Below, piece by piece: positions 6,436 through 60,608 of a stretch of DNA of 64,000 nt. Position 1 is the stretch's first letter; each line of letters begins with the position of its first letter. The notes under the pieces are model-generated. The model was not told the origin of the DNA and ran no database searches. It saw only the letters and a program-made list of their open reading frames with translations. Both the position numbers and the translations under genes were made by a program. The stretch is from NCBI GenBank assembly GCA_045534555.1, contig JAZSJW010000010.1:10533-74532 (forward strand), given 5' to 3'. This stretch comes from Clostridia bacterium. Its GTDB lineage: Bacteria; Bacillota; Clostridia; Christensenellales; UBA1242.

Positions 6436-6450
6436 ACATAGGAGGAAAAT

Positions 6451-7314
6451 ATGAAAATTCTTATCACTTCTGACAGCTCGTGTGATTTAAGCAAAGAGTT
6501 ATTATCTGAATACAATATAAATACTCTTCCATTATACGTAAACCTTAATGGAGAAGAGTTTAGAGATGGCGTAAATATATCCCCTGAGCAAATTTTTGAA
6601 TTTGTGAAACTAAATAAAAAACTTCCAAAAACTTCTGCTCTTAGTGTTGCAGATTATACGTTGTTTTTTGAAAACATTTTAAAAGAAAATGATAGTGCTG
6701 ATATTATTCATATTGGCTTATCAAGCGGATTATCTACAAGCTATAACAATGCTGTCGCTGCATCAAAAGAGTTTGACGGCAAAGTTACTATTATTGATGG
6801 CAAAAACTTATCTACAGGTACTGGACTTTTAGTTCTATATGCAGCAAAACTTGCAAAAGATGGATATAGTAAACAAACAATAATTGAAAACGTTAACAAA
6901 AGAGTTCCTTTTGTTCAAGCATCATTTATTATTCCTGAAACTGAATATCTATATCGTGGAGGCAGATGTTCTGCAATTGCCATGCTTGGAGCGAATTTAT
7001 TGAAAATTAAACCAAGAATTCAAGTTATCGATGGAAAAATGAAACCAAATGGAAAACCTAGAGGTAAAATGGTTCCTGTTTTAAAACAATATATTGATGA
7101 TGTTTTAGCAGAATACAACAACCCAGACCCAGAAATTTGTTTTGTTACCCATTCTACTATCGAGCCAGAGGTTGCTGAAGAAATTAAACAATATGTAGAA
7201 GATAAAAAAATATTCAAACAAGTTGTTGTTACTGTAGCAAGCTCAACAATTACTAGCCATTGTGGAAAAGGTACACTTGGAATACTATACATTAACGACG
7301 GAGGAAAGGCTTAA
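6451..7314 (+). CDS. DegV-family fatty-acid-binding protein
   Basis: N-terminus MKILITSDSSCDL, typical ~285-aa length and the C-terminal ITSHCGKGTLGI pattern of DegV proteins. Confidence 0.8.
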   Translation: MKILITSDSSCDLSKELLSEYNINTLPLYVNLNGEEFRDGVNISPEQIFEFVKLNKKLPKTSALSVADYTLFFENILKENDSADIIHIGLSSGLSTSYNNAVAASKEFDGKVTIIDGKNLSTGTGLLVLYAAKLAKDGYSKQTIIENVNKRVPFVQASFIIPETEYLYRGGRCSAIAMLGANLLKIKPRIQVIDGKMKPNGKPRGKMVPVLKQYIDDVLAEYNNPDPEICFVTHSTIEPEVAEEIKQYVEDKKIFKQVVVTVASSTITSHCGKGTLGILYINDGGKA

Positions 7315-7327
7315 ACCTTAAATAATT

Positions 7328-7903
7328 ATGAAAAAGTTTATACTAGCATTATTAATTTGCATTTTATGTTTACCAACAGCTTTGCTTTATGGCTGTAACA
7401 ACACAACAAATTCAGGAATTGATTTATCTGTTTACTTTGAAAATGATGTAAAATATAAAGTTTATGACAAAACTGGAACAACTACTGCAACACTTAAAGA
7501 TTTCACTCACAATAATCATAATGACCAAGTTCAATACACAAACATTACATTCACTGGCAAACCGGCTTGGCTTTATAAAATGACATTAGAGAAAGTTACT
7601 TTTGATGTTTACGGAAATGTTGATGTTGACGATTTACAAATCACAATCACTATTACAAACTTAGTAAAAGGTGATAATTCAATTACAACTTCTAACACAT
7701 TAACAAAAGAAATTCCTGTTAATGTTACTAAGAACAAAGCAGTAAAAGTTTCACTTGATGTAAACGATGTGTTTAATTCTATTTCAGCCTCAACAACAAT
7801 TAAAATTGACATTGACCCATCTTATTATAAAGGCGATAACAAAGACTTAGGCTTTAAGCTAGATATTATGAATTTTAAAGTTTATGGAGAACATAAGAAA
7901 TGA
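7328..7903 (+). CDS. putative lipoprotein, function unknown
   Basis: Signal peptide plus lipobox: MKKFILALLICILCLPTALLYGC. Thr/Asn-rich mature part. Confidence 0.6.
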   Translation: MKKFILALLICILCLPTALLYGCNNTTNSGIDLSVYFENDVKYKVYDKTGTTTATLKDFTHNNHNDQVQYTNITFTGKPAWLYKMTLEKVTFDVYGNVDVDDLQITITITNLVKGDNSITTSNTLTKEIPVNVTKNKAVKVSLDVNDVFNSISASTTIKIDIDPSYYKGDNKDLGFKLDIMNFKVYGEHKK

Positions 7904-34700: not shown

Positions 34701-36451
34701 CCTGCACCTTGTAAATATTGTAATGAGCTTCCATTCCATATTTCAATTCCTGTATAACCAGGCAAATCTACAGAAGCAAAAGCAAATTCAACATCTAAAA
34801 TATTTGCTTTTGAATAATTTAGTTCTTCTGCCGACTGCAACATAAGTGCCGCAAACTCAACAAATGTAACATCTACACTTAATTTGCTTAATGTTTGATA
34901 CCAAAGTTTTAGTATGTTGGATTTATTAAAGAACTCTGGGTCTCTTTTGTACATAATATAAGTTGCATAAGTCATTAATGTACTATTATAATGCACGCCA
35001 CCATTATCACAATCTTCATGAGAACATGCTGAATTATTGCATAGTGGATATAAATCTTCATAACTTGCAGCACAGCCAGGTATTGCCGTTGGATTTGACA
35101 TATCTCTAAAATATCTGTTACTTGCAATATAAATATCTTCACCCATTCTCCAGAAGTTTGCATCAGATAATTCATAACCTTCAATACATGCACCAAAAAT
35201 ATCTGAATAAGCTTCACATATTGCACCAGATTCGTTAAAATACTCAAGTTGAACAACACTGTCTGTTATTGAGTGTTGATATTCGTGACCAACAACATCT
35301 AATCCGTTTACAAAAGAACTTGTTCCTTTTGCAATATTTCCATCACCAAAATAAAAATAACCCGTAGTAGAACTATCATAAGGTAAATAAAAGGCGGCAT
35401 TTTCATAGTTGTTATCGTAGTGCACAATAGCTATTAATTTTATTTCTTTACCTTTAGGATTTGTTAGCCCATCAATAGAAACACCAAAGTTGTTAGCATC
35501 TAGATAAAAATCATAACACTGCATAATATAATCGTATGCTCGTACAGCTATTTCATCATTAAATGCCCCAGAAGCACTATGTGATGTATAATACAAACCA
35601 TCATTATCACTTTGATTATCACCATCAGTGACATATATAGCCCTTTCGCTGTCTCCTAAAAGATAAAAACTTTCCTCGGTTGTTTTGCTTGTATACTTAT
35701 CAACATATAATGTTACCGTTTCGCCTTTTACATTAGTATATGTTGTTGAAACTTTTTCTCTTGTATAATCATCTAAACTTGGCAACTTCGAAATTTGATC
35801 AGTTAACGAAGTTGTTGCTTTTACCACTTTTTTAATTGCTAAATCTTCACTTGAAACGAATACTCTATAAATATCCCCAAGCATGTGAACTTCATATACA
35901 TATGCTAAGTAGCCCTTTTCTTCAGGCATTATATTCTTTTCTAAATATGTAATTTGTTCTGTATCATAATTTTTAATTATTGCCTCTAAAGCTTCTTCTA
36001 TAGAAAACTCAGTTTCTAGCTTAGGTTCTAAGTTTTTATAATATGAACTGTTAATTGAAGTAACTCTACCTTCTGAATTTACATTTACTATAACCTCAGA
36101 GCCATAAACCCTAATATTTTTATAATACTGGTCAAATCTATAAACTACTCCAGTAACATTTTGAACTTTTCTAGTAAACTTCAAAACATCTCTACTAGAC
36201 TTAAAATCAAATGTATCTTTGAAATCATCTAAAACATCTAAAGCATCTTCACTATTATCTACTTTATGCCCAACAAAATCACCCGTAATAAGTGTTATTT
36301 CATTATTGTTGGATTTTATATCAAAATCGGCATTTGCAAAAACACTCTCTTTAGGAGAAACAAACACGGTAAAGATTGGCAATATAATAACAACCACTAA
36401 TAAATACACACACCATCTAAACTTAAATCTATTCATTCTTACAAACTCCAA
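31733..36451 (-). CDS. M4 (thermolysin-like) zinc metalloprotease fused to GLUG-type repeats, Listeria-Bacteroides-type repeats and a C-terminal TM anchor
   Basis: N-terminal signal/TM. HExxH in VVGHEYQHSITD, third ligand EAYSDIFG, and GGVHYNS. Many G-G-[LVI]-[AV]-G (GLUG-like) units. Near the C-terminus YGFSGWS and FIRWGE repeats, ending in a hydrophobic helix plus RKKNRNV. Confidence 0.8.
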   Translation of the reverse strand: MEFVRMNRFKFRWCVYLLVVVIILPIFTVFVSPKESVFANADFDIKSNNNEITLITGDFVGHKVDNSEDALDVLDDFKDTFDFKSSRDVLKFTRKVQNVTGVVYRFDQYYKNIRVYGSEVIVNVNSEGRVTSINSSYYKNLEPKLETEFSIEEALEAIIKNYDTEQITYLEKNIMPEEKGYLAYVYEVHMLGDIYRVFVSSEDLAIKKVVKATTSLTDQISKLPSLDDYTREKVSTTYTNVKGETVTLYVDKYTSKTTEESFYLLGDSERAIYVTDGDNQSDNDGLYYTSHSASGAFNDEIAVRAYDYIMQCYDFYLDANNFGVSIDGLTNPKGKEIKLIAIVHYDNNYENAAFYLPYDSSTTGYFYFGDGNIAKGTSSFVNGLDVVGHEYQHSITDSVVQLEYFNESGAICEAYSDIFGACIEGYELSDANFWRMGEDIYIASNRYFRDMSNPTAIPGCAASYEDLYPLCNNSACSHEDCDNGGVHYNSTLMTYATYIMYKRDPEFFNKSNILKLWYQTLSKLSVDVTFVEFAALMLQSAEELNYSKANILDVEFAFASVDLPGYTGIEIWNGSSLQYLQGAGTLANPYKINTVADLASVAYYINEAKDASYATARYQVNADLDLENIPWIGIGTIDNPFDGVFNGGGKKIKGLNISGNQDDVYAGLFNYTGANSYIYDIRVGEGTTTTKAEYAGAIAGLLQGTISGCSSDLNIIGENVGGLAGLVINQMGGEKIVNSYVSADLEGLIVGGLASEFSTPINSSVNLHLSGYIASSYTTGTLTGNIVGGVVGRANAIYLVNVITIATLQDAGQGAVIGGLVGELGFKDISDSSAQTPDVVSNLILSAKVASSINVQNETTNKALLIGVFTGEVGQGTLYIENSTIKKQEGLELCSTSLTGSHIKIKDSKTISDEIFEGSFDFDNKNYYLRASNWTILDGIEAFDFVSTYEIKEENSLPVFRDSDFWLNYSAGGFSSGSGSESDPFIITTPEQLALMASLISSKYYNSYYSTKSYKLGADIDLSGKIWVGIGASYITIEEGLTTGYEVCSFSGTFDGDGHSIVNMNAIGAYSVQGLNTTGSNYQLTEYLPALFGNTNIAVDGADVYIPTIKNVKLENINNRGSYASSIVSKAYLSVNIDNASVVGGNITSNFIVGGIVSVLDGVTGSFAQDGFVSTISNCNTDVNISGRIAGGVVGYITNAEKTTVSTLNIINHMNKGKISVTGEEYNSIYSEGSSSYYRPIAGSMVGVSLIKNLNIINSINIGDVVSYSYGAYIGGYIGALGVGGAHVQPTMNILIDGCKQIGDIYYVFDDVLSSAGSIIGGTHAELASAVNITITNKTHTNQEDVLIANNQMGSGVSIVSNMNVSNDNLGEGDFDIYNETYFLSEEHFNSEHLWAAEHIKSAFIVVTYRDTDGSYLGETLLRKGQTSIEESETPHPTKISNNQYQYGFSGWSQKLSGITQSMTVYAEYNIKEMQYQISYYDEDGNLIVTKTLGFGESVNQDIKAPEKKSGFLFEYEFIRWGEVGQTVTGELDVTPVYKMSLTMAGKIILISIAVCIALLFYYGYRKKNRNV

Positions 36452-38826: not shown

Positions 38827-40386
38827 TTAAAATTTCAACAATGATTTTAACTTATCATTATTAACCGCAAGCAAGAATATTCCAAGTTTTGGACCTTGCT
38901 TTGCACCAAGAAGTAAATTATAAAGAATTTCAAAATATCTTTTTTGAACTTTCTTTAAATCTTGTGGCTCAAGGTTTAGATATTTCACAACACCATAAAG
39001 ATCTGTCATTAATTCATCACTTGTATTATAAGTATTATCTATAAGTTCAATTGTTTTATTAACCCATAATTTTTCATCATCGTTTAATGTGTTATAAAAT
39101 TCAGTATTCTTTTCTGTTAATAGGTTAACTTGATATTCTTTTCCGTAATTTTCAACCCAGAATTTAGCTCTTTCAAGTCTTTCTTTATAGTATTCTGAAG
39201 AAGTATCAGTGTTTTCTTTTTCCATAAGTTTAGCTAGCATTTCTTCGTTGAAGTTTACAATTGGTAAAAATGTTGCCAAATAACTAAAGTTTGGATAATT
39301 AGCATATGATTTTGCATCAACTTTAGTAAACTCAAGTATCTGCTTGTTTCCTTCGTCAATTCTTTCTTCATTTAACATTTTTACATATCTATCAAATTCA
39401 CTATAATATCTAATAACATCATTATCAAAAGCAATATTAAAGTTTTGCATTGGTTTATATTTTGCATAGAACCACAAAATCAAATGCTTGTCATAAATTT
39501 TTAAAAGATCTGTCAATGTTAAAACGTTACCAGTAGAAGAACTCATCTTTGCCCCACCACCTTTAATACCTATAAAGTTATAAGGCTCATAAATTGGAGG
39601 TTCAAAACCAAATATTTCTCTAGAAATTCTAACCGCAACATCTTTGCTTCCGTTTGCTGTAGAGTGATCCATACCACCAGACTCAAAAATTACATTTTCT
39701 GCTTGCCAACGCATAGGCCAGTCAACTTTCCATTGAAGCTTGATGTTTCTTGCACTCATAACATTGATTGTTTCTACATGTCCACATTCACATTTATAAA
39801 CAATATCACCAGTTTTTTCATCATAACTAACAATACCTTTTGTTTCTTTTCCACAACCAGAGCAATACACACTTAAAGGATAAAAGTTATCTCTTTCACC
39901 CTCTTCTGCATCTTGAGTTCTAAAACTATCGATAATATCAAAAATTTCTTTACGTTTATCCATAGCAAGCTTAATCTTTTCTGCATATCTACCGCTTCTA
40001 TATTCTTTTGCTTGATAAATACATTCAACTTCAATTCCAACTTGCTTTAGTTCGTTTAAAAATCTCTTTTCAAAGTATTCTGCATAAGACTCATTTTCTG
40101 AAAATGGGCTAGGAATATCAACATATGGTTTTCCAATGTACTTCACATAGTCACTAGGTATATTACCTGGCACTTTTCTAAATCTATCAAACTCATCAAT
40201 AGATAAAATAAATCTAACTTTCTTTCCTAATTTTCTTAAAGCACAAGCAACAAAATAAGGTGTTACAATTTCTCTGAAGTTTCCAATATGAACAAATCCT
40301 GATGGACTAACACCAGAGGCGATTGTATAAACATCTTCATTTGGTCTTTCCTTTACAATTCTCTCAGCAAATTCTTCTGCCCACAT
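38827..40386 (-). CDS. lysK: lysine--tRNA ligase, class I
   Basis: HIGH-type SGFVHIGNFRE, KMSKS-type GAKMSSSTGN and a Cys-knuckle insertion CSGCGKETKG...YKCECGH. The ~520-aa length is typical of class-I LysRS. Confidence 0.85.
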   Translation of the reverse strand: MWAEEFAERIVKERPNEDVYTIASGVSPSGFVHIGNFREIVTPYFVACALRKLGKKVRFILSIDEFDRFRKVPGNIPSDYVKYIGKPYVDIPSPFSENESYAEYFEKRFLNELKQVGIEVECIYQAKEYRSGRYAEKIKLAMDKRKEIFDIIDSFRTQDAEEGERDNFYPLSVYCSGCGKETKGIVSYDEKTGDIVYKCECGHVETINVMSARNIKLQWKVDWPMRWQAENVIFESGGMDHSTANGSKDVAVRISREIFGFEPPIYEPYNFIGIKGGGAKMSSSTGNVLTLTDLLKIYDKHLILWFYAKYKPMQNFNIAFDNDVIRYYSEFDRYVKMLNEERIDEGNKQILEFTKVDAKSYANYPNFSYLATFLPIVNFNEEMLAKLMEKENTDTSSEYYKERLERAKFWVENYGKEYQVNLLTEKNTEFYNTLNDDEKLWVNKTIELIDNTYNTSDELMTDLYGVVKYLNLEPQDLKKVQKRYFEILYNLLLGAKQGPKLGIFLLAVNNDKLKSLLKF

Positions 40387-45459: not shown

Positions 45460-47682
45460 TTAGTCTGCTATTCCAAATAAATCTTTTAATTTATTTTTTA
45501 CATCTTCTTCTGCTTCAAGATTTGTAATTTGATCTTTGATATTTGTTTTTGTTTCTTCACTTAAATTGTCACCTATATTAAGATCACCAACAGCACTATC
45601 CGTTCCTGTAATTACACCTAAGACTTCTGTTGATTGAGCTAAAGCTCCAACCAATTCTAAAGTATCCTCTTCTGCAATTTCTACTTTTGCTTCAGGATTT
45701 TCAGTTGTATCTAAGTTAATTACTTTGTTTGCTACAACAAATATTTCTTCAACTGCTTTGATTTCTTTTTCTAGCACTTCGCCCTCAAGCTCTAATACGC
45801 TCGAAATTGTTTCGCTTACAACACCTGCAGTGTTATCATCAAGACCTAAATCTTTAAGTGTATCTTCTTTAATTACTTCAGAAACAACATCTTTCAACGC
45901 ATCATTTGTAGCAAAGTCAGTTAAAACATCTCCCAAATCTTCAATTTTAAAGTCTTCCACATTAGTTTGTAAATCTTTTGCAATTTTTAACGCTTTACCT
46001 AACGATTCAAATGTTGGTGCCAATAATTCATCACTATCCCAAGTTTCTTCAAGCTTTGTCACAAATGTATTTAATGTCGTACTGTTTGCACCAACAATTT
46101 CTTCAGAATTAAGCAACGCTTTCATTATTTGCTTTGATGATGGACCTAACAATGTTGACTTTCTAACATTATCAAATGTTTCGCCTAACAATTTGAAATC
46201 TAAATGCTCTAGAGCTTCTTCACCTTGACTTGTACCAATATCTATCTTGTCGTAAATTTTAAATACATTTGTGAATATTGTTATAAGTATTGGTTTTTCT
46301 TCTGTCCAATCAACATCTGCACTATCTACATCAACATCGTCAATTGTTTCTTTATCTATATTTAATGCTTCATAAACATAGTTCATTCCAACATTTATAG
46401 CTTCTGGAAGTACTGCTTTTATAGTATTACTTTCTAAAGCCTTTGTTAAAATATCTGAAATTAGATTTTCATTTTCCGGCTTTCTTAAAACCTCAAGAAT
46501 ATTTCCATCCTCTGACATTGTTGATATTAACTTTGCATCATTTGCAATCATTAGAATATCAATGCTTGTATCAATATCATTTTTTACTGTATCACCTTCA
46601 GCAACAGATAAGTTTAGTAAAAGAACGTCAAACAAATCATCTAAAGCTTCGTCATCTATCTTTGGTTTTTGTATTTCACAGAACTTTCCACCAGAACTCC
46701 ATATTCTTGAAACTTCTGGCACAATTTCTTTAACCATTCCTGAAAGAAGTTCTGATTTATATAACTCATTAATCATTGATTTTATATCATTTAAAGTTTC
46801 ATTATCTTCTATGTCTAGTTTTTCACTCAACAATGTTTGCATATATGGATAAGCATCTGCTAAAGTATCCACTTCGTCCATTAATGCAAATTTAGCACTT
46901 TTACCTTCAACGGTAGTCAATTTATCAAACATTTTTACAGAAAGTTTTTTAATTCCAACTGCCTTAAATAACTTTCCTACCCAATTTTGTTCAAATGCGT
47001 CTGTATACTTTATTACTCCGTTAATTGTTTCCACAACAACATCATTAGTGCTCTTTTCATCTTCTGGTTCTTGACTATTAACATACTGTACTGTATTTTG
47101 TTGATTTTCTTGTTCTATTGTTTCAAACGGTTTAAACATTTCTACTGCACCAAAGCAAGGAATTAACACAACTACAACAACTATTAATCCTTGTACAGCA
47201 CCTATAACAGCACCAATAAAAGGATGTTTTTCTTTTCCGTTCATTTTTTTCTTAGAGAAACAAATTCCAGAAATAATCCAATATATAACCATTGAAATCC
47301 ACTTGAAAACAAAGAAGAACACAATAAATAAGATTACATTTAGTAACATTTGTGGTACAACTTCTAAAAATGACTCAAATGTAGGACTTGCCTCAATAAT
47401 ATCCTCTATTATTGGGATTTGTCTTAACATATCTGTAATTAAGTCCTGAATAGTCATAACTTGGATATCACCTATAACAATATTTAATTTAGAGATATCT
47501 AAAGTTAAGACTGCACTTGTAAGCGGAGGTATAACAAAGAACGATAAAACCCCAACAACCAAAACAATTATAAATCTTGTTAATGATTTATTTAAACCTC
47601 TAATCCAACCAATTACAAATCCTAAAATTATAAAAAACAAAAATAAAGAAATCATTATACTAGGTATTAAAGTTGCATTCAT
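45460..47682 (-). CDS. large membrane protein with CvpA-like N-terminal TM region and acidic C-terminal domain
   Basis: The start is set at ATG 47682, which has a GGTGG RBS; the ORF-track GTG lies within that RBS. There are four or five TM helices in the first ~190 aa, then a long Asp/Glu-rich region. Confidence 0.45.
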   Translation of the reverse strand: MNATLIPSIMISLFLFFIILGFVIGWIRGLNKSLTRFIIVLVVGVLSFFVIPPLTSAVLTLDISKLNIVIGDIQVMTIQDLITDMLRQIPIIEDIIEASPTFESFLEVVPQMLLNVILFIVFFFVFKWISMVIYWIISGICFSKKKMNGKEKHPFIGAVIGAVQGLIVVVVVLIPCFGAVEMFKPFETIEQENQQNTVQYVNSQEPEDEKSTNDVVVETINGVIKYTDAFEQNWVGKLFKAVGIKKLSVKMFDKLTTVEGKSAKFALMDEVDTLADAYPYMQTLLSEKLDIEDNETLNDIKSMINELYKSELLSGMVKEIVPEVSRIWSSGGKFCEIQKPKIDDEALDDLFDVLLLNLSVAEGDTVKNDIDTSIDILMIANDAKLISTMSEDGNILEVLRKPENENLISDILTKALESNTIKAVLPEAINVGMNYVYEALNIDKETIDDVDVDSADVDWTEEKPILITIFTNVFKIYDKIDIGTSQGEEALEHLDFKLLGETFDNVRKSTLLGPSSKQIMKALLNSEEIVGANSTTLNTFVTKLEETWDSDELLAPTFESLGKALKIAKDLQTNVEDFKIEDLGDVLTDFATNDALKDVVSEVIKEDTLKDLGLDDNTAGVVSETISSVLELEGEVLEKEIKAVEEIFVVANKVINLDTTENPEAKVEIAEEDTLELVGALAQSTEVLGVITGTDSAVGDLNIGDNLSEETKTNIKDQITNLEAEEDVKNKLKDLFGIAD

Positions 47683-47939
47683 AACAAAAACCACCTTTTT
47701 ACTTTATATAATATTATTATATAATAATGATTTAAAAAAAACAATAATTTTATGCTTAAAAACAGAACAAATAATTCGCCTTGTCACAATAAACAGACAC
47801 AAAAGCTATAACTACATCAAAAATACAATAAAGAAAAACAAAAAAAATCAAAAAAACACTTTAAATTTCTAAAAGTGTATGTTATAATCATATCACTTGG
47901 TTAAGTTCAGGGCACAAACCAAGCACAACTAAATAAAGT

Positions 47940-48030
47940 GGAGAGATACTCAAGTGGCCGAAGAGGATGCCCTGCTAAGGCGTTAGTACGAGTAATCGTA
48001 GCGCGGGTTCAAATCCCGCTCTCTCCGCCA
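47940..48030 (+). tRNA. tRNA-Ser (anticodon GCU), CCA encoded
   Basis: GGAGAGA acceptor stem pairing with TCTCTCC, anticodon loop CTGCTAA, long variable arm, T-arm GCGGG-TTCAAAT-CCCGC, discriminator G and CCA. Confidence 0.9.
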
Positions 48031-48066
48031 AGTGATAACAATCCGAACACTTATGTTCGGGTTGTT
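48025..48066 (+). repeat. direct repeat, left copy (last 6 nt of tRNA-Ser plus its terminator hairpin)
   Basis: CCGCCAAGTGATAACAATCCGAACACTTATGTTCGGGTTGTT recurs at 52128..52169 with a single mismatch (48044 C versus 52147 T). Weaker similarity continues for about 15 more nt. Confidence 0.9.
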
Positions 48067-48070
48067 TTTT
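48039..48070 (+). terminator. intrinsic terminator of tRNA-Ser
   Basis: Stem CAATCCGAACA / TGTTCGGGTTG, followed by a T-run. Confidence 0.7.
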
Positions 48071-48189
48071 ACTAAAAAATCAGTTGCAATAAACCAAAAG
48101 AAAAATCAGCCCCTTTGACAAAATTTTGAAAGTTTATATTGAAAATGTGTCTGTTTTATGCTAATATAAAAAAGATTTAGGAGAAACCT

Positions 48190-48975
48190 ATGAATATAAG
48201 AGATTTCAATAATGACGACTTTATCAATGTAATAAATTTGTATAGTGCACCATACAAAATAAAAAACGGAGAATCTTTAGCTCCTATTGAAATATTAGAT
48301 ATAAAAAGAAACTCTACTGAGGCTATAATTAAAACATCTCAAATTTTTATGGATAAATACATCATTAAGAGATCTTTTAAATTTAGTAACAACCAAGACG
48401 GAATCTCTATTAAGACAGAAATGATAGATCACGAACTTAGTGGAAATGTTGTTGTTTATGATGCATCACGTTATTTTACTCCTATTTTCATGATGATTTC
48501 TTCTAATAACAAAGACAAATCTGTAGATTGGTTATCAAGATTCTCTATGGATGATTTATATTATTTTGCCAATAAATATGTTCAGACTTGCTCTAGCATA
48601 AATATAGAAACTGACACCCAATTCCATAATCATTGTAAAGACATATTTACAAAAGATGAAAACGGTTACATAATTTCAGCTAGAAGCTTTGGGGATTATG
48701 GCATAAACTATGCTAAACATACACACACCCTATCTAAACTTAATAGTCCCACTCTTTTCCAGCCCGAAGATTTGGAATTTTATAAATTAATGCTAACAAA
48801 ATTAAATAATGACGAAAAAATAGAATACACTAACAATTTTGTCAATGCTCATCTCGAATCATTCATAAACATTAAAAATAATAAATCTAATTTTATACTA
48901 AATATAGACAAATGCAGAAATAGTGCCATAAAGTTATTAGAAAGTCTTGGGGATGATCAACAAACAAGTTTGTAA
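48190..48975 (+). CDS. hypothetical protein (first gene of the islet)
   Basis: 261-aa ORF with a TAGGAG RBS and no motif I can recognise. It is separated from the SIR2 gene by a 267-nt non-coding stretch ending in terminator 49156..49186. Confidence 0.55.
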   Translation: MNIRDFNNDDFINVINLYSAPYKIKNGESLAPIEILDIKRNSTEAIIKTSQIFMDKYIIKRSFKFSNNQDGISIKTEMIDHELSGNVVVYDASRYFTPIFMMISSNNKDKSVDWLSRFSMDDLYYFANKYVQTCSSINIETDTQFHNHCKDIFTKDENGYIISARSFGDYGINYAKHTHTLSKLNSPTLFQPEDLEFYKLMLTKLNNDEKIEYTNNFVNAHLESFINIKNNKSNFILNIDKCRNSAIKLLESLGDDQQTSL

Positions 48976-49155
48976 TAATTGCTTAAATTATTGCAAGCAG
49001 GCAAGGCAAAACAAAATTAAGTCAAAAACAAATAAAGCGAATTGCCTTTATCCTTGCCACCGACTTAAAGAGCTTTGCCGAAACTACCGGCGACTTTTCT
49101 AACCTATCAGCAAATGTAGTCTACACTCATTTGCAATCCAATCAATAAAACTACG

Positions 49156-49186
49156 AGAAGAAGTGAAAAACTTCTTCTTTTTTTCT
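49156..49186 (+). terminator. intrinsic terminator inside the islet
   Basis: Stem AGAAGAAG (49156-49163) / CTTCTTCT (49171-49178) plus a T-run. Confidence 0.7.
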
Positions 49187-49242
49187 TGTAGGCCTTTCAT
49201 TATTAAACAAAATATGCTATAATAAGATAAGCGAGGGTTACT

Positions 49243-50274
49243 ATGAAAAAAATAAATATTTACAACGATAATAGCGATGAACGAAAATATGAAATTAAAA
49301 AATTGATTAATATGTTTTCTTCTTCACACATTAATGTTTTACTTGGTTCAGGTTTTTCAATGCCACTACTAAGCACTTTAGCTAACATCGAGAAAGATTT
49401 GACAGAAGCTATAAAGAATAATGATATCGAGAAGCAGGCAAATTTATACAAAATATTTTTTGAAGGTTCTATGTTGCCTTTAATAAATAAGAAAGATGAA
49501 AAATCTAACATAAATGCAAGAAACAACTTTGTAAAACATATTTATAACTTTGCCGATACAAGAGATAGTTCAACTTTACATAAAATGATAAATATTTATA
49601 CAACAAATTATGATAATCTTATTGAAAGTTCATTAGAAACTAATAAAATACCTTATTTTGACGGATTTGAAGGTCGTTCTCCTGCAATATTTTCCACAAC
49701 AAATTACGGCAAATTTTTTGGTCGTCAAAGTGGCATTTCTAATAGGTCTACCGAAATTACTGCTGTTAATTTATATAAACTTCATGGTTCATTATTTTGG
49801 AAACAAACAGAAACCGAAATCCAATTTGAAAACTTTAAACACAGGTTACAAGAATTTGAAAAAACAAGCAATACTGGCGAAGAATATATAAAAGAATATG
49901 AGAATAAATTTGCTATAATAAACCCAACTAAAGAAAAACTAAATTCAACTTTGCTTAATATTAATTACTATGACCAATTAAGGTTAATGAGCAATGAACT
50001 AGAAAAGCAAAACGCACTACTTCTTTCTTTCGGCTTTTCTTTTGCAGATGAACATATTTATACCATAATTGAAAGAACTTTAAAAATCAACCCAACTCTT
50101 ACATTAATATTATTTGCCTATTCTCAAGAAGATTTAGATAAATTTTCCAATATATTTGAGTTAAATAAAAATTGTATCTGCTATTATATGGAAAATGAAT
50201 CCAATGAATTTATTAACTTTTCTCTTTCTCAATTAAATTTACTTTTAGATGAGGTATCTGATGAAATTAAATGA
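49243..50274 (+). CDS. SIR2-like (SIR2_2 family) NAD-utilising protein
   Basis: Motifs VLLGSGFSMP, IYTTNYDNLIE and LYKLHGSLFW match the defence-associated SIR2_2 pattern (GAG-like loop, TTNYD, KxHG). Preceded by an extended -10 TGCTATAAT. Overlaps the next gene. Confidence 0.75.
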   Translation: MKKINIYNDNSDERKYEIKKLINMFSSSHINVLLGSGFSMPLLSTLANIEKDLTEAIKNNDIEKQANLYKIFFEGSMLPLINKKDEKSNINARNNFVKHIYNFADTRDSSTLHKMINIYTTNYDNLIESSLETNKIPYFDGFEGRSPAIFSTTNYGKFFGRQSGISNRSTEITAVNLYKLHGSLFWKQTETEIQFENFKHRLQEFEKTSNTGEEYIKEYENKFAIINPTKEKLNSTLLNINYYDQLRLMSNELEKQNALLLSFGFSFADEHIYTIIERTLKINPTLTLILFAYSQEDLDKFSNIFELNKNCICYYMENESNEFINFSLSQLNLLLDEVSDEIK

Positions 50275-52051
50275 TGAATTAAGAATAGGCGAAGTTTCAG
50301 AAGTTTCTGGAAAACAAATCAAAGCTGGCATTTATTATGAAAAAAACACAGAATTCTTAAATTTCAATGGAGATGTAATAAAAAATGTAAGTATAGGTAG
50401 TTTTGTTATAATTAGAAAATCATATACTAACATTGTTGGTAAGGTTGAAGGCGAGTTTATAAAAGAAAGTTCTTCTAACGATTTTACAGATTTCAAAGGA
50501 AGAAATATAAATCGAGTAATTAGTATTTCTATTTTAGGGAGCATTAAAAACAATAAATTTATACACGGATTAAACAGCTTGCCAATGGTTGGTAATTATG
50601 TATATGTGGCAACAGAACATGTTGTAAATGAAATTTTTTCAAACACAGAAAATGATAATCTTACACTCGGAAATTTAATTGGAGTTGGTGATTATCCATT
50701 TACTGTTAATTGTCAAAACCTATTATGTAGCCATATAGGAATATTTGGAAATACAGGAAGCGGGAAATCAAATACTTTAGCAAAAATATATAAGGATACT
50801 ATTGAGAAATTTTCAATCTATAACAACTTTAAAAATAATACAAAATTTGTTTTTATAGATTTTAATGGTGAATATGAAAATGTATTTGATGAATGTGATA
50901 ATTTTATATTATCTACTCGTAAAACAAAAGATAGATATCCATTATCTTTTAAAGATATTACAGATAGTGAGTTTTGGTCAATAATTTTAGAAGCCACCGA
51001 TAAAACACAAAAGCCATTTATAGAAAGAGCAATAAAAGAATTTAAGTATATTGAAAACCACCCAGAAAGTATAGACTATAAAGAATTAATTGACTTAGTA
51101 TTTAATGCCACAGAAAAATATACTGAAATTAGATTGTATTTAAAAGAATTATTTTATTTATTAGGCCTTAAAGAACATTTTTCAAACATTGAAGAACATT
51201 TACATTATAACACTAAACAAAAGTGTTTTTATACATTGACTGATGGCACTCAAAACTATGGTATAGATAAAGAAGTTATATTTGATTTGTCTTTTGGAAA
51301 TTCTGACAATCTCACAATTGATTTGACTAACTATAATAAATTTGATAAGTTTGCAATAGTGTTATATAAACAATATTGTAGGGAAATAAGCAAGGCTTTT
51401 GTAACAAAAGAACATATTGGCCCACTAATGGCAAGGTCAAGAACAAGAATTGAACAACTGGACAAAATTTTTGAGATAAAAACAAACGATAAAAAAAGGA
51501 AAACAAATATTGACATAATTTCTTTGATTGGATTAAATGTTGAAATGCGTAAAATTGTTCCATTGATTATTTGTAAAAAATACTATAATGAGAAAAAAGA
51601 ATCCAGAAAGAAAACGATAGTTTCTACTTTACATATAATTATTGATGAAGCTCACAATATTTTATCAACAACATCTATTAGAGAAAGTGAAGAATGGAAA
51701 GATTATCGTCTAGAATGTTTTGAAGAAATTATAAAGGAAGGTCGAAAATTCGGCACATTCTTAACTATTGCTAGTCAAAGACCTTCTGATATTTCTGATA
51801 CAATCATCTCCCAATTGCACAACTACTTTATTCATAGATTAGTCAATGAAGAAGATTTAAGAAAGATTTATAGAACTATATCTTTTTCCGATAAAGCGAC
51901 AAATGAAATGATTTCAATATTACCAGCTGGTGGATGTGTTTTTTCAGGATTGGCAACAAACTTTCCAATCTTAGCTCAAATAAGGAAATTAGATACAAGA
52001 CACGAACCAACTAGTCAAAATGCAAAAATTGATAATATTTGGAAAGATTAG
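50261..52051 (+). CDS. HerA/FtsK-like hexameric ATPase
   Basis: N-terminal barrel-like IGEVSEVSGKQIKAGIY, Walker A GNTGSGKSNT (nt 50747-50770), Walker B LHIIIDEAHNIL and IASQRPSDIS. ATG 50261 (GAGG upstream) or ATG 50249; either start overlaps the SIR2 stop at 50274. Confidence 0.75.
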   Translation: MKLNDELRIGEVSEVSGKQIKAGIYYEKNTEFLNFNGDVIKNVSIGSFVIIRKSYTNIVGKVEGEFIKESSSNDFTDFKGRNINRVISISILGSIKNNKFIHGLNSLPMVGNYVYVATEHVVNEIFSNTENDNLTLGNLIGVGDYPFTVNCQNLLCSHIGIFGNTGSGKSNTLAKIYKDTIEKFSIYNNFKNNTKFVFIDFNGEYENVFDECDNFILSTRKTKDRYPLSFKDITDSEFWSIILEATDKTQKPFIERAIKEFKYIENHPESIDYKELIDLVFNATEKYTEIRLYLKELFYLLGLKEHFSNIEEHLHYNTKQKCFYTLTDGTQNYGIDKEVIFDLSFGNSDNLTIDLTNYNKFDKFAIVLYKQYCREISKAFVTKEHIGPLMARSRTRIEQLDKIFEIKTNDKKRKTNIDIISLIGLNVEMRKIVPLIICKKYYNEKKESRKKTIVSTLHIIIDEAHNILSTTSIRESEEWKDYRLECFEEIIKEGRKFGTFLTIASQRPSDISDTIISQLHNYFIHRLVNEEDLRKIYRTISFSDKATNEMISILPAGGCVFSGLATNFPILAQIRKLDTRHEPTSQNAKIDNIWKD

Positions 52052-52127
52052 TGTATTTTGCAAATTAAAACTCTAATCCACCTAGCACCAATGTAGCTTT
52101 TGGTGTTAGGATTGGATAACGGTCTTC

Positions 52128-52169
52128 CCGCCAAGTGATAACAATCTGAACACTTATGTTCGGGTTGTT
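52128..52169 (+). repeat. direct repeat, right copy
   Basis: CCGCCAAGTGATAACAATCTGAACACTTATGTTCGGGTTGTT. It includes a second copy of the terminator hairpin followed by a T-run. Confidence 0.9.
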
Positions 52170-52339
52170 CTTTTTTTGCTAAAAATTATATTAACAAATA
52201 AGTTTTTTGTCGGTTGTTCTTTAATCTTCTAATCAAAACAAATGATAAATAGAAAATGCAATTATATCTCGGTTAAAATCTGTTATTGTGATAAAATTAA
52301 CTTTCTTGAAACATATTATTTTAATACTTAGATAAAAAA

Positions 52340-52370
52340 GGTCCAAAACATAATTGTTTGGACTTTTTTT
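52340..52370. terminator. bidirectional intrinsic terminator
   Basis: Stem GTCCAAA (52341-52347) / TTTGGAC (52357-52363) with an A-run before and a T-run after. The T-run overlaps the stop codon of the minus-strand gene. Confidence 0.6.
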
Positions 52371-52836
52371 ATAACCCGTTTTTTGAACGAAGATATGTTA
52401 TTCTTGTGTTTTGATTTTCTTTTATTAAATTCAATCTATTAAGCATTTGCTTTAGCTGAACTAAATCAGTTTTTATCGCAACAAACTCTTCCACAATTAA
52501 ATCTTCTGTTGCATTTTCAAAATTGGTATACTTAAAGTATTCATGAGTAAAATAGTTTCTTTTACCAAGAAGATCTTTTAACGTATTTATTTCTTCATGG
52601 CTTAAACTTTTAGATTCGTACACAGTTCCAATCATTTGACCAAAAGTCATAGTTTCCATTTTTTCTTTCAAAAATGCAGCATCATCTACTACCCTATTAT
52701 ATTCTTGAGCTGTAATTTTTGAATGTCTTCCAAACTCTTTAATAATTTCACTTTTTTCACAAATCTCGCCTAAACAAATTTCAATTTGTTGAGTAATTTC
52801 TGCAAACTTACCTATTAAACAATAAATTCTATTCAT
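52369..52836 (-). CDS. small HEPN-motif protein (HepT/DUF86-like RNxxxHxY), no partner gene
   Basis: 155 aa, all-helical composition. KRNYFTHEYF at residues 92-101 (nt 52537-52560) gives R93-x4-H98-x-Y100. Confidence 0.45.
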   Translation of the reverse strand: MNRIYCLIGKFAEITQQIEICLGEICEKSEIIKEFGRHSKITAQEYNRVVDDAAFLKEKMETMTFGQMIGTVYESKSLSHEEINTLKDLLGKRNYFTHEYFKYTNFENATEDLIVEEFVAIKTDLVQLKQMLNRLNLIKENQNTRITYLRSKNGL

Positions 52837-57256: not shown

Positions 57257-58624
57257 TTAAAAGAACTTTCTAATTAATTTTGTTTTTAATTTTCCATAAG
57301 GGCGATAACGAACAAACAAATCAAATTTTGAACCCTTTTTAACAACAGTTTTATGATGAGAAAAAGTTTCAAAACCACGTTTCCCGTGATATGCACCCAT
57401 TCCGCTTTCTCCAACACCACCAAAAGGAAGCGTTGGTGCTGAAAGATGAAGAATTGTATCGTTAATACAACCGCCACCAAACTGAACATTACTTAAGAAA
57501 AATTCTTCTACATCTTTATCTTTAGTAAAACAATAAAATGCAAGTGGCGTATCATTTCTTCTAATAATTTCTAGAGCTTCTTGCTTTGTTTTATATGATA
57601 CTACTGGAAGAAGAGGTGCAAATATTTCCTCTTTCATTATTAAAGAATTTAGATCGGGTTCTTCTATAATAGTAGGCTCAAGTTTAAGAGTTTCTTCATC
57701 AAATTTTCCACCATGAACAATATTTTGCCCCTGCATTTTCTCAATTGCAGCATCAAAATGCTTCTTTGAAATTAATTTACCATATGTTTCATCTTGCAAA
57801 GGATTATCACCATATTGTAACTTTAATTCCACTAAAAGAGCCCTAAGCAATAGTGGTTTTACACTTTCATGGATCAAAACATAATCCGGAGCAACACAAG
57901 TTTGACCACAATTTAGAAATTTACCAAAAACAATTCGCTTTGCGGCTAAAGAAATATTTGCCGACTTATCTACAATACAAGGACTTTTTCCACCTAATTC
58001 AAGAGTAACTGGTGTATAATTTTTTTCAGCATTTTGAAGAACAACCCTACCAACATTTTTACTCCCCGTAAAGAATATGTGGTCGTATTTATATGTCAAC
58101 AAGTCTTCATTTACTTCCCTACCACCCGTAACAACTTTTACGAAATTTGGTTCGAATGTGCTTGAAATTATATCCTCAATTAATTTGCTTGTTGCTTTTG
58201 AATAAGCAGACGGTTTAACTACTACAGTATTACCTGCCGCAATCGCATCAACAAGAGGTTCCATTGTTAACATAAAAGGATAATTCCATGGGCTCATTAT
58301 TAATACCACACCTTTTGGACCTGGAATTATAAAACTCTTACCCGGGAAATTAGCAATACCACCTTTCACTTTTTTAGGTCTTGAAAGTTTTCTTAAGTTT
58401 TTAAGCATATAATTTATTTCTGCTAAAACTAAAGAAACTTCACACATATAGCCCTCGATTTCGCTTTTGCCTAAATCTTCTTTAAGTGCTTCAAGTATTT
58501 TATTTTCATTATTTAATATTGTTTGTTTTAAAAGTTTTAATTGCCTTTTTCTAAATTTTAAACTTTTAGTTTCGTTAGACAAAAAATATTTTCTTTGTAT
58601 ATCTATTATTTCTGATGTTTTCAT
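57257..58624 (-). CDS. NAD(P)-dependent aldehyde dehydrogenase (class-3-like)
   Basis: ELGGKSP, catalytic Cys in NCGQTCVAPDY, EEIFAPLLP and FGGVGESGMGAYHG. Confidence 0.85.
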   Translation of the reverse strand: MKTSEIIDIQRKYFLSNETKSLKFRKRQLKLLKQTILNNENKILEALKEDLGKSEIEGYMCEVSLVLAEINYMLKNLRKLSRPKKVKGGIANFPGKSFIIPGPKGVVLIMSPWNYPFMLTMEPLVDAIAAGNTVVVKPSAYSKATSKLIEDIISSTFEPNFVKVVTGGREVNEDLLTYKYDHIFFTGSKNVGRVVLQNAEKNYTPVTLELGGKSPCIVDKSANISLAAKRIVFGKFLNCGQTCVAPDYVLIHESVKPLLLRALLVELKLQYGDNPLQDETYGKLISKKHFDAAIEKMQGQNIVHGGKFDEETLKLEPTIIEEPDLNSLIMKEEIFAPLLPVVSYKTKQEALEIIRRNDTPLAFYCFTKDKDVEEFFLSNVQFGGGCINDTILHLSAPTLPFGGVGESGMGAYHGKRGFETFSHHKTVVKKGSKFDLFVRYRPYGKLKTKLIRKFF

Positions 58625-58723: not shown

Positions 58724-58752
58724 TTGACTATAATTGTTTTAAATTGTAGAAT
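58724..58752 (+). promoter_or_regulatory. sigma-70-type promoter candidate for the two-HEPN-motif gene
   Basis: TTGACT (58724-58729), a 17-nt spacer, then TAGAAT (58747-58752). An AGGAG RBS lies 6 nt before ATG 58771. Confidence 0.45.
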
Positions 58753-58770
58753 AATTCACAGGAGAAAACT

Positions 58771-60564
58771 ATGACAGAATCTGATTTTAGAGTAAAAATT
58801 GCTAAAAACATTAATGATGTTTTAAAATGTATATACAAAAATGTTTCAAATGAAGAATTTAGTCCTTTTATAGATCTTTCAAATATACCATCTACAACAC
58901 TAAAGGATTTTTGGTTATATACAACAGGTTTCTTAGGTTTAAAAAATCAAGAAGAATTTTACGATAAACTCTCTGACCAAGAAGTAAAAAATATTCTTAG
59001 TGGAGTTTTTGTTCTAAAAGAATTACCTTTGGACCAAGCTCAAGAATTTGCAAAAAAAGCAAAGAAAAAAGTTCCTGAAAAAGGTTCTGGGATTAAAATT
59101 GATTTATATACAGTACAAGATGGAACTTATTCCATTTTAAAAGGTTTTAAGGACGAGAATGGTAATTCTTGCAATTTCCTAACATTAACAACAAACCCCC
59201 TTGAATACCACACAGATAAAACTATTGACCAACTAAAGATAACACCCAGAGAAGCTTTAAAAACATTAAGAAATGTATTTGCTCATAGAACACCAACCAT
59301 TGATGGAAATCGTTTAATTTTCGAACGTGGCGATGATGAAATTGTAGTAAGTAAGATGTGGCTTAGAGGATATGCCGAATTATTTTCTAAAAAAAGCAAA
59401 ACTCTTAATTCTTCTGATATTGAAAAATTAATACTTTCTAATCTCGAAAGCACAAACAACACTTTATCAAACAAACAGGAATTAGACCAAGTTCTTTCTT
59501 CCATTAAAAATATTTTTGGAGAAAATGTAAATAATAATTTTTACAAATTAACAAACTTTATACAAACCAGATTAAACATTCAACAAAATTTTTTCAAGAA
59601 TGATTTATCTTTCAAAGTAAAAACAATATCCTCTCTTCTTGCAAATAATTCTGAATATATAATAGATAACGTTGGCTTTATTAATTCCTCTATTATTTAC
59701 AATATACAGCAACTTGTTGGACTTGAACTATATGCAAGAGGTGAATATACAGACCTTGAACTTGAAGATTATGACCTTGAAAAGATGCAATCTTTAATTA
59801 AGCAAGTTGAAGATTTCAACACTAAATGCAATATGACAAATACTATTATCCGTTCGGGAAAACAATTTTCTCAAATGGCAAAAAACAGGTTTCACAAAGA
59901 ACTTAATAGTATGAAATCTAGAATTCACACTTATTTACAAGGATTATCAAGCAAACAAAAACTAGAAACATCTAACATGGAACTCTATAATATTGAAGAC
60001 CTTAACTTCCTATCAACAGAAGTTGCTTTGCATACAGTTCTATTGATGTGTTATAACAGCTTAATTACCAGCTCTTTCTATGATGATTTGATATCAAAAA
60101 CAGACACAAGAAATTTATCACAAGCACAAACTGAGTTTTTTGATAAGTTTGATTTTAATAACTTTGATTTTTTATATAACAATATAAAGAGAGTTGACTT
60201 CGATGCCGGACAAAAAATGTATTTCCTTTTATGCCTAAGAGAAGCTCTTTGTCATGGAACAATAAGCTATAAATTACCAGAATTTAAAAATGGTGAAAAA
60301 CCTAATTTTTCAGACACTGTTATATGTTTTAAAACAACAAAAAGGCAAAATTCTGAAATATACGGAACAGTTCAAGACTTTTATAATTTATTTTCTTCTA
60401 AAGCTTTTGTTTCTGCTAGACAAGAAGAAATTGTGACGAAAAAAAGCAGGGAATTTGAACAAGAAGAAATTCAAAGAACTGAAGCGGAAGAACAAGATTA
60501 TAAAAACATAAATGAGATTATTCAAAATTTAATCGAAATTGAAGAAAGTTTTAAAGACTTATAA
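58771..60564 (+). CDS. stand-alone protein with two RxxxxH (HEPN-type) motifs; predicted RNase of unknown family
   Basis: 597 aa. LRNVFAHR (R167..H172, nt 59269-59286) and LREALCHG (R490..H495, nt 60238-60255). Helical, Asn/Lys-rich, with an acidic C-terminal tail. It has its own promoter and terminator. Confidence 0.5.
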   Translation: MTESDFRVKIAKNINDVLKCIYKNVSNEEFSPFIDLSNIPSTTLKDFWLYTTGFLGLKNQEEFYDKLSDQEVKNILSGVFVLKELPLDQAQEFAKKAKKKVPEKGSGIKIDLYTVQDGTYSILKGFKDENGNSCNFLTLTTNPLEYHTDKTIDQLKITPREALKTLRNVFAHRTPTIDGNRLIFERGDDEIVVSKMWLRGYAELFSKKSKTLNSSDIEKLILSNLESTNNTLSNKQELDQVLSSIKNIFGENVNNNFYKLTNFIQTRLNIQQNFFKNDLSFKVKTISSLLANNSEYIIDNVGFINSSIIYNIQQLVGLELYARGEYTDLELEDYDLEKMQSLIKQVEDFNTKCNMTNTIIRSGKQFSQMAKNRFHKELNSMKSRIHTYLQGLSSKQKLETSNMELYNIEDLNFLSTEVALHTVLLMCYNSLITSSFYDDLISKTDTRNLSQAQTEFFDKFDFNNFDFLYNNIKRVDFDAGQKMYFLLCLREALCHGTISYKLPEFKNGEKPNFSDTVICFKTTKRQNSEIYGTVQDFYNLFSSKAFVSARQEEIVTKKSREFEQEEIQRTEAEEQDYKNINEIIQNLIEIEESFKDL

Positions 60565-60574
60565 TTTTAAAATA

Positions 60575-60608
60575 TAAAAAAGCATGTGAATTAATCACAT
60601 GCTTTTTA
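60575..60608. terminator. bidirectional intrinsic terminator
   Basis: Stem AGCATGTGA (60581-60589) / TCACATGCT (60595-60603), with an A-run before and a T-run after. Confidence 0.7.

Follow-up and report, generated by a model that had tools for sequence, protein, structure and literature searches.

The 64-kb stretch of Clostridia bacterium contig JAZSJW010000010.1 analysed here, which we refer to throughout as the window, carries next to the folA–thyA–folD genes an open reading frame (ORF) for a protein of 597 amino acids (aa). A preliminary description, made from the sequence alone, had singled out this ORF for two HEPN-type R-x4-H motifs in one polypeptide. The coordinates of the gene, hereafter the twin-motif gene, and of the features in and around it are collected in Table 1, in which L-numbers denote homologous loci. 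The ORF is real: it starts with ATG, and a ribosome-binding site lies 7 nucleotides (nt) upstream. GGAG-like sites also precede most of its orthologues. The first point to note is that R-x4-H does occur exactly twice in the protein, as R167–H172 (RNVFAH) and R490–H495 (REALCH), against a chance expectation of 0.19, the protein holding only 6 His and 19 Arg.

Conservation of the motif residues in homologues, which the preliminary description had proposed to examine, proved to be complete. In an alignment of 54 full-length members, reaching down to ∼22% identity (range 22–69%), R167, H172, R490 and H495 are invariant in all 54. The residue following each motif Arg is polar in 53 of the 54, being N at position 168 and N, E, H, Q or D at position 491. 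The rest of the protein diverges freely, with a mean column identity of 31%, but N168, M196, E417 and N429 are kept in at least 52 members, and L44, D46, F47, Y50, G53 and F54, in an N-terminal LKDFWxYTxGF segment, are nearly invariant. The ratio of non-synonymous to synonymous substitution rates (dN/dS) is ∼0.11 for the closest pair with DNA, a value to be taken only as a bound, since synonymous sites are saturated; by this measure the gene is under purifying selection. The invariance of the motifs in the 54 members, together with this selection, argues that they are functional and not incidental. The opposite view, that the motifs are accidents and that the ORF encodes a structural or orphan protein which evolves fast and catalyses nothing, would fit the narrow distribution of the family and its lack of any assignment. 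We regard it as next to negligible, because R-x4-H pairs that persist at 22–69% identity, where 0.19 are expected, under purifying selection, form a conservation pattern that effectively refutes it.

The two motif-bearing units are, as judged by profile alignment, homologous to each other, detectably so only around the motif. When residues 150–215 were aligned with residues 470–550 using hhalign, a probability of 83% was obtained (E = 9e-6, 48 columns), with ‘L..iRN..AH...P...f...(K)MWLRGY.ELF’ paired with ‘L..iRnAlcHg...P...F...G.L.DFY.LF’. With wider boundaries (residues 1–212 versus 396–556) homology was supported around the motif helix only, and the middle domain showed no relation to either motif module by hhalign.

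The gene also has its own transcription signals. Of the near-consensus promoter proposed in the preliminary description, it must be said that such a match is at chance level within the AT-rich window taken alone (14 matches versus 14.4 expected). The architecture itself nevertheless stands, as 13 of the 15 homologous loci compared, whose contexts are unrelated, have TTGAC-16/18-TAxAAT at 44–53 nt 5' of the ATG, whereas shuffled controls gave a mean of 0.12 and a maximum of 3. The cross-locus comparison thus validates the predicted promoter as near-consensus and vegetative, and its position implies a very short leader of ∼11 nt for the mRNA. The terminator, which had been described as strong and bidirectional, is likewise real, and is common to the twin-motif gene and the convergent folA; terminator-like hairpins lie 3' of the stop codon in ∼12 of 15 orthologous loci. 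With a promoter, a short leader and a terminator of its own, the twin-motif gene forms a self-contained transcription unit, and its expression is probably constitutive. The region 5' of the gene is ∼146 nt long and is occupied by two divergent promoters. The GC content of the gene, 28%, is that of its surroundings. Inside the ORF there is a 15-bp tandem repeat of 2.3–2.6 copies encoding FDKFDFNNFDF, which falls in the poorly conserved loop before motif 2, a variable region where slippage during replication probably gave rise to it.

When 5.8 billion proteins were searched through a word index, 30 homologues were returned, all of 577–658 aa apart from one truncated sequence. None of them has a Pfam domain, and the sole name they bear is ‘hypothetical protein [Clostridia bacterium]’. 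An exhaustive phmmer search of 1.84 billion cluster representatives gave 56 clusters, with full-length members of 557–688 aa, and a 47-sequence profile, used to look for more distant relatives, returned only the same family. As this last search added nothing, the family is small and closed, with a fixed architecture. It is also undescribed until now. The preliminary description had taken the protein to be so, and Pfam, NCBIfam, PADLOC, PHROG, PDB-sequence and Foldseek searches gave no family assignment; nor does any sequence with the family's MWLRG signature occur in the supplementary tables of the Cas13an study (PMC12165695).

The carriers belong to eight GTDB species, all of them uncultured Clostridia represented by metagenome-assembled genomes, and the named hosts are sheep, goat and roe deer. 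Sporulation genes (SpoIIE, YabP/YabQ) are present in the window and in L014. A metagenome scan with ThyA provided 80 outgroup thyA loci (ThyA 67–76% identical), none of which has a twin-motif gene; this shows restriction to the lineage as far as outgroups are concerned, and does not speak to polymorphism among close relatives. No relative of the 597-aa protein was found in phage, plasmid or IMG/VR collections.

The preliminary description regarded the gene as an accessory-looking one, inserted between an aldehyde dehydrogenase gene and folA–thyA–folD. The homologous loci show otherwise. The slot beside the folate genes is kept in loci whose twin-motif proteins are 68% (L002), 42% (L014) and 31% (L016) identical to that of the window. 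In L014 the gene lies between secA–comF–AAA_18 and folA–thyA–folD, in L016 between AAA_18–comF–secA and folA–thyA–folD–glyA, and L002 has the arrangement of the window with extra insertions. Traces of the same order are seen in L010 (31%), where folA–thyA are 5 kb from the gene, and in L008 and L009, where comF–AAA_18 are 7 kb upstream of it. Other loci have the gene between clpX and engB, beside rplI and the S10 operon, beside rpiB and an iron-containing alcohol dehydrogenase (Fe-ADH) gene, or near dnaA–dnaN or recR–dnaX. The flanks are always housekeeping genes and never defence genes. It is the aldehyde dehydrogenase gene that varies, being restricted to the window, L002 (82% identical) and L001 (69%, with Fe-ADH); L014 and L016 lack it, and there AAA_18 or secA is immediately followed by the twin-motif gene. 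Because synteny with folA–thyA–folD is kept down to 31% identity, these comparisons show the twin-motif gene to be a vertically inherited chromosomal resident, and not a mobile or defence-island gene; its local GC content and the lack of phage, plasmid and IMG/VR relatives likewise run counter to the accessory label.

No constant partner gene was found across the 16 loci. Two candidates were considered and rejected. One, a 576-aa neighbour, was found in L011 alone and is no paralogue. The other, a two-pass membrane protein of 218 aa and of no known family, is encoded directly upstream of the twin-motif gene, in divergent orientation, in three loci that belong to a single subclade, to which it is confined. 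In L004, the twin-motif gene occupies the interval between clpX and engB, where many Firmicutes carry lon.

Elsewhere in the window, a strain-specific defence islet adjoins a tRNA gene. Its SIR2 and HerA genes, which overlap by 26 nt, form a SIR2–HerA anti-phage pair 7 kb from the twin-motif gene and independent of it. The islet is an insertion, as in the closest relative, L002, a gene for a 744-aa protein directly abuts secA; the islet is absent from relatives that still carry the twin-motif gene. The 744-aa protein is a lineage-specific orphan with no Pfam or PADLOC match, and is kept in L002 (68% over the part compared). Further away, the window encodes a class I lysyl-tRNA synthetase (PF01921, E = 2.3e-111), which is taxonomically unusual, most bacteria using the class II enzyme, and a 1572-aa M4 thermolysin-like metallopeptidase with an FTP propeptide, more than 1000 C-terminal residues of which have no Pfam match.

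Table 1. Positions of the twin-motif gene, its signals and protein regions, and other features of the window and of homologous loci (window numbering unless a locus is named)
Feature	Position	Strand	Basis or remark
Coding sequence, 597 aa, stop codon included	58771..60564	+	ATG start
Ribosome-binding site AGGAG, 7 nt 5' of ATG	58760..58764	+	Direct sequence reading
Predicted sigma-A/sigma-70-type promoter; -35 TTGACT 58724–58729, 17-nt spacer, -10 TAGAAT 58747–58752	58724..58752	+	Scan match 10/12
Bidirectional intrinsic terminator; 13-bp stem, 5-nt loop, T-runs on both strands	60577..60607	.	2 sites found versus 0.5 expected
N-terminal helical region, aa 1–76, with LKDFWxYTxGF; candidate helices 1–2 of first HEPN-like unit	58771..58998	+	Model secondary structure
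First motif-bearing alpha/beta module, aa 77–212: beta-rich insert, motif helix 159–172, three-stranded beta-meander, helix 195–207	58999..59406	+	AlphaFold pLDDT 80–91; homologous to C-terminal module
HEPN-type motif 1, R167-N-V-F-A-H172, C-terminal end of helix 159–172	59269..59286	+	R and H invariant; N in 53/54
M196-W-L-R-G200 signature, start of helix after first beta-meander	59356..59370	+	W197, R199, G200 invariant; family-specific
Central helical domain, aa 213–330 (conserved R267, K282, Y310, Q313, R323), then linking coiled-coil hairpin, aa 331–397	59407..59961	+	Model; hairpin pLDDT 65–80, poorly conserved
Second motif-bearing alpha/beta module, aa 398–556: long helix 415–433 (E417, N429), short helices, beta-hairpin, motif helix 479–494, beta-meander, helix 534–541	59962..60438	+	pLDDT 89.1 alone
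Tandem repeat, 15 bp	60137..60176		Inside ORF
HEPN-type motif 2, R490-E-A-L-C-H495, C-terminal end of helix 479–494	60238..60255	+	R and H invariant
Variable acidic C-terminal tail, aa 557–597; long helix in 597-aa protein	60439..60561	+	Model and alignment
Aldehyde dehydrogenase	57257..58624	-	Variable element
Strain-specific defence islet	47940..52836		Adjoins tRNA gene 47940–48027
Islet ORF, 261 aa	48190–48975		No known family
SIR2–HerA pair	49243..52051		
Islet SIR2_2 protein	49243–50274		PADLOC SIR2, 1.6e-56
Islet HerA/DUF87 ATPase	50249–52051		PADLOC HerA, 3.7e-155
Islet ORF, 155 aa, minus strand	52369–52836		
744-aa protein	45460..47694	-	
Class I lysyl-tRNA synthetase	38827..40386	-	
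M4 thermolysin-like metallopeptidase	31733..36451	-	
Twin-motif gene between clpX and engB	L004 6519..10532		
218-aa membrane protein	L006 7212..7868	-	Absent outside L006, L007 and L012
218-aa membrane protein	L007 ∼6324–7780		Tandem copies
218-aa membrane protein	L012 ∼1985–3242		Tandem copies

The full-length protein, modelled by AlphaFold2 with the family alignment, is predicted with confidence to be compact (predicted local distance difference test, pLDDT, 85.2; predicted template-modelling score, pTM, 0.84), and the isolated C-terminal module is predicted to adopt the same fold on its own. In the model, each unit has a group of helices followed by a beta insert, then by the motif helix, whose C-terminal end bears the His, by a three-stranded beta-meander and by a further helix. 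Between the two units come a domain of helices and a coiled-coil hairpin that is poorly conserved. The C-terminus differs among members. About 20 of the 54 homologues end in a disordered acidic tail with QPGD(E/D), QPNDDE or EPGEE at or near the C-terminus, whereas in the 597-aa protein and its four closest relatives the C-terminus is a helix (...EESFKDL) and such a motif tail is missing. A tail of the QPGD(E/D) type might serve as a short linear motif for interaction, or might mimic nucleic acid and so be autoinhibitory.

How far the protein resembles known HEPN proteins can be judged from the features that define the superfamily. These are a conserved Rx4-6H motif, in which R is typically followed by N, D or H, placed at the end of core helix 3 and the start of the next loop (PMC3710099). 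The core is a four-helix up-and-down bundle in which inserts between helices 2 and 3 are frequent, and Csx1 has a beta-hairpin insert after the motif; many families also have a second acidic residue, typically in an Ex3[KR] of helix 2, which is optional in the superfamily (PMC3710099). The families were linked by HHpred at 75–98% in the defining study (PMC3710099). Three of these features are found in the 597-aa protein, namely the Rx4-6H motif, the polar residue after R and the location at a helix end, H172 and H495 being the last or near-last residues of the predicted helices 159–172 and 479–494, which run into a loop. The order of elements in the modelled modules can be mapped onto the H1-H2-insert-H3-insert-H4 order of the HEPN core, and their predicted topology is still compatible with such a core carrying Csx1-like beta inserts (PMC3710099).

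A PADLOC scan of 47 members gave marginal matches to RTasHEPN and CARF_HEPN. To locate these, N-modules and C-modules were each concatenated and the resulting chimeras scanned, a procedure whose E-values lack statistical validity and which is informative in its ranking and positions only. Of the 26 model matches to the chimeras, 21 were to HEPN-bearing models: CARF_HEPN matched 8 of 10 chimeras and RTasHEPN 5, while two Cas13b models together gave 6 matches, Cas13c 1 and AbiD 1. Each model matched with the same part of its profile throughout, and the R-x4-H helix lies within every best stretch, in N- and C-modules alike; motif 1 was aligned by CARF_HEPN, Cas13b, RTasHEPN and AbiD, and motif 2 by RTasHEPN, CARF_HEPN, Cas13b and Cas13c. 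At the level of profiles, therefore, the local context beyond the two residues shows itself to be that of bona fide HEPN active-site helices. We conclude that the protein is HEPN-like at the motif level, membership of the fold being unproven.

The explanation that we consider best, and to which we would give about an even chance, is that the twin-motif gene encodes a new, chromosomally fixed, single-chain endoribonuclease of twin-HEPN type that is controlled within its own polypeptide. We infer the juxtaposition of the motifs, the ribonuclease (RNase) activity and the autoinhibition. The family would then consist of cytoplasmic proteins of ∼600 aa made of two homologous modules, each presenting R-[polar]-x3-H at a helix end. 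Like the HEPN domains of Cas13, the two modules may pack against each other in the single chain and so bring their Arg/His pairs together in one composite endoribonuclease site that would need no metal. Binding RNA, or keeping this site closed, could fall to the beta-rich inserts, to the acidic tail and to the central helical domain together with its coiled-coil hairpin. Intramolecular restraint of this kind would allow a constitutively transcribed nuclease to be tolerated without an antitoxin or a guide RNA; a narrow substrate specificity would be an alternative form of restraint. As to its role, the vertical inheritance, the housekeeping context and the vegetative promoter make us lean towards a resident RNase whose substrate is cellular RNA, be it for processing, for turnover or for a shut-down triggered by stress; an immunity module that is shuffled horizontally seems to us less likely.

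A number of observations weigh against this explanation. The preliminary description had called the protein helical and had proposed a Foldseek comparison with HEPN families. Both motif-bearing modules are instead predicted to be alpha/beta, with two long helices each, and the canonical four-helix core is not evident. Foldseek gave no match at E < 0.05, whether the full model was compared with PDB and BFVD or the isolated C-terminal module with PDB, and thus no significant match to any HEPN structure. The best matches are weak ones to PAS/Cache/GAF-like sensor domains; that of the C-terminal module is to 7dud (erWalK, the WalK extracellular PAS/Cache domain; E = 0.079, probability 0.44, template-modelling (TM) score 0.30). 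The sole HEPN structure among the matches listed was Csx1 4eog, at rank 28 with a probability of 0.02 for the C-terminal module, and no Cas13 structure was among the best 50 matches listed in either PDB search.

From these results a protein other than a nuclease can be envisaged, in which PAS/Cache/GAF-like modules use the Arg/His pairs, on a helix turned towards the beta-sheet, to bind an anionic small molecule or nucleotide, and which acts as a sensor or scaffold through protein–protein contacts. The isolated C-terminal module does have the strand-strand-helix-strand-strand-strand-helix order of PAS/PDC folds, its best matches beyond WalK are other PAS, Cache, GAF and Roadblock sensors, and the full-length model weakly matches CodY GAF, LOV and double-Cache domains, whereas no HEPN structure was matched significantly. 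All of these sensor matches are, however, non-significant (TM score ∼0.3, probability at most 0.44), no PAS, Cache or GAF domain was matched by Pfam in the 597-aa protein or the family members, and there is neither an output domain nor a constant partner gene. The HEPN signature, a hydrophobic helix with R, a polar residue, x3 and H at its end, is duplicated and invariant, and is matched at the motif by HEPN-bearing models only. In addition, Foldseek and hidden Markov model (HMM) searches are known to miss divergent HEPN proteins, having failed to link Cas13an to the other Cas13s (PMC12165695), and the negative fold search is for this reason weak evidence against HEPN. We hold the sensor, which is the main rival on structural grounds, to be decidedly unlikely.

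Sequence searches also count against the endoribonuclease. Neither the protein nor 31–47 members gave a significant family match in Pfam, NCBIfam, PADLOC or PHROGs, the sole NCBIfam matches being to beta-lactamase and DacD, far below the cut-off. The PDB was also searched by sequence, with the protein itself, with the family profile and with profiles of the two modules, and no HEPN assignment resulted. Matches in these searches to Cdc37, a ribosome-inactivating protein (in inconsistent order), coatomer and aspartate racemase were rejected as spurious. The matches to HEPN models described above are short (13–30 residues) and individually non-significant. No clear Ex3[KR] is seen: the invariant E417 does precede motif 2, but is followed by x3-N/H rather than K/R, and E203-x3-K/R207 stands after motif 1 and not before it. 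The 597-aa protein is also net acidic.

Finally, the twin-motif gene is the fastest-evolving of its block. Between the window and L002, amino-acid identity is 94% for SecA, 95% for ThyA, 93% for dihydrofolate reductase and 82% for aldehyde dehydrogenase, but 68% for the 597-aa protein; for L014 the values are 87% for SecA, 91% for ThyA and 42% for the 597-aa protein. Evolution at such a rate is seen more typically in conflict genes than in housekeeping RNases. The protein might be a single-protein anti-phage or abortive-infection HEPN effector, that is, a latent RNase toxin that senses infection through its variable domains, degrades RNA so as to halt phage replication, and has become fixed in the clade. 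HEPN-type motifs are typical of conflict systems (PMC3710099), and single-chain twin-HEPN proteins outside CRISPR loci have already been catalogued (PMC12165695). A rapidly changing protein with few invariant residues of catalytic type and a narrow distribution is what such an effector would look like; the variable coiled-coil and tail could serve as sensors, and autoinhibition would dispense with an antitoxin. Against this stand the synteny down to 31% identity, which implies vertical descent, and flanks that are always housekeeping genes (secA, folA–thyA–folD, clpX/engB, the rplI/S10 operon and dnaA–dnaN). Phages, plasmids and viral contigs hold no relatives, PADLOC gave no significant match, and the sole defence system nearby, SIR2–HerA, is a strain-specific islet missing in relatives that keep the gene. 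On balance we think an anti-phage role possible but unlikely.

Two HEPN active-site motifs in one chain are essentially the hallmark of Cas13. A third rival is a Cas13-like RNA-guided effector with its array or guide RNA encoded elsewhere. The preliminary description saw neither a repeat-spacer array nor a cas gene or antitoxin-like ORF on either side, and this is borne out. There are no CRISPR or tandem arrays in the 64 kb and none adjoins the gene in the 16 loci; no cas gene or antitoxin-like neighbour lies near the twin-motif gene. Across the homologues the neighbourhoods, which it had proposed to check, hold no adjoining arrays or defence genes. At the gathering threshold, Rfam found in the window two distant tRNAs only, and at E ≤ 10 it found nothing relevant around the gene, with no CRISPR or RF03085-type RNA. 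The ∼146-nt upstream region is filled by its two promoters, and across 15 loci no conserved non-coding element other than the promoter was seen. What favours a guided effector is the HEPN-linker-HEPN arrangement in ∼600 aa, in the size range of Cas13an, and the fact that Cas13b and Cas13c models touch the motif helices. The Cas13 models, however, match 20–55 residues only, and overall we rate this explanation as very improbable.

The comparison with Cas13 is instructive in other respects. The preliminary description had considered the protein shorter than Cas13 effectors, which does not hold for all of them, as Cas13an proteins have 429–577 aa (PMC12165695), and 597 aa is within or near that range. 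Like Cas13 and Cas13an, the protein has two R-x4-H motifs in one chain, mutually related units and a helical linker, and the proposed Cas13 ancestor is a fusion of two related HEPN genes (PMC12165695). Unlike Cas13, it has no array, repeat or guide-like RNA in the window or the homologous loci, its modules are predicted to be alpha/beta and it is inherited vertically among housekeeping genes. No Cas13 subtype was matched significantly, by PADLOC in the 47 members or by fold.

Other HEPN proteins show partial likenesses. As in Csx1 (PMC3710099), R-N-x3-H at a helix end is followed by an insert of beta-hairpin type, and CARF_HEPN is the most consistent of the weak matches, at profile positions ∼327–369 of 382. 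Csx1 and Csm6, the CARF–HEPN ancillary nucleases of type III CRISPR systems, are however homodimers with one motif per chain, where the 597-aa protein has two, and it lacks a CARF match in Pfam and PADLOC as well as nearby cas genes. With Abi2, AbiD and AbiF it shares the RN..AH form of motif 1, one weak match of 18 residues (AbiD, in a chimera) and a stand-alone gene with no protein antitoxin. It is, however, twice their size, has two motifs and no upstream RF03085, and its gene is not associated with plasmids, phages or restriction–modification systems; Pfam Abi_2 (PF07751) had no match even at E ≤ 10 in 31 members. HepT of the HepT/MntA (HEPN-MNT) type VII toxin–antitoxin system has the R-x4-H catalytic motif at a helix end, but is an all-alpha dimer of ∼130 aa that is always paired with an adjacent MNT antitoxin; no MNT or nucleotidyltransferase (NTase) neighbour was found in the 16 loci and no DUF86/HEPN match in Pfam.

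We also entertain, as rather unlikely, a reading that goes further than the self-controlled endoribonuclease. Here a Cas13-like architecture, with two fused homologous HEPN-type units and a helical linker, would have been fixed in a clade of gut Clostridia as a constitutive, vertically inherited core gene of the chromosome. A twin-HEPN RNase would thus have been domesticated to serve either the metabolism of cellular RNA or a self-contained surveillance of RNA, and its scaffold would be a remodelled alpha/beta HEPN one for which the PDB has no structural relative. More radically still, the alpha/beta modules might lie outside HEPN altogether, the R-N-x3-H catalytic signature having evolved convergently.

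The preliminary description is confirmed in what it observed and supported in part in how it interpreted this. For the present, the protein is best filed as a twin-motif nuclease architecture of HEPN type, built on a remodelled alpha/beta scaffold and set outside both defence and CRISPR contexts, its putative function being assigned from the motifs. The origin of twin-HEPN fusions, and their role before guide RNAs, is an open question (PMC12165695), and the family provides an independent-looking twin-motif example, formed by internal duplication, with no guide RNA and no antitoxin, in a non-mobile chromosomal setting. Its importance is limited by a very narrow host range, that of uncultured Clostridia of the ruminant or animal gut. 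If it is an active RNase, however, it would mean that cells can tolerate the twin-HEPN design in a resident gene that is transcribed constitutively, and that there is a structurally remodelled HEPN variant which present HMM and Foldseek screens miss; it would also offer a compact scaffold of ∼600 aa on which to study how HEPN sites are gated within one polypeptide.

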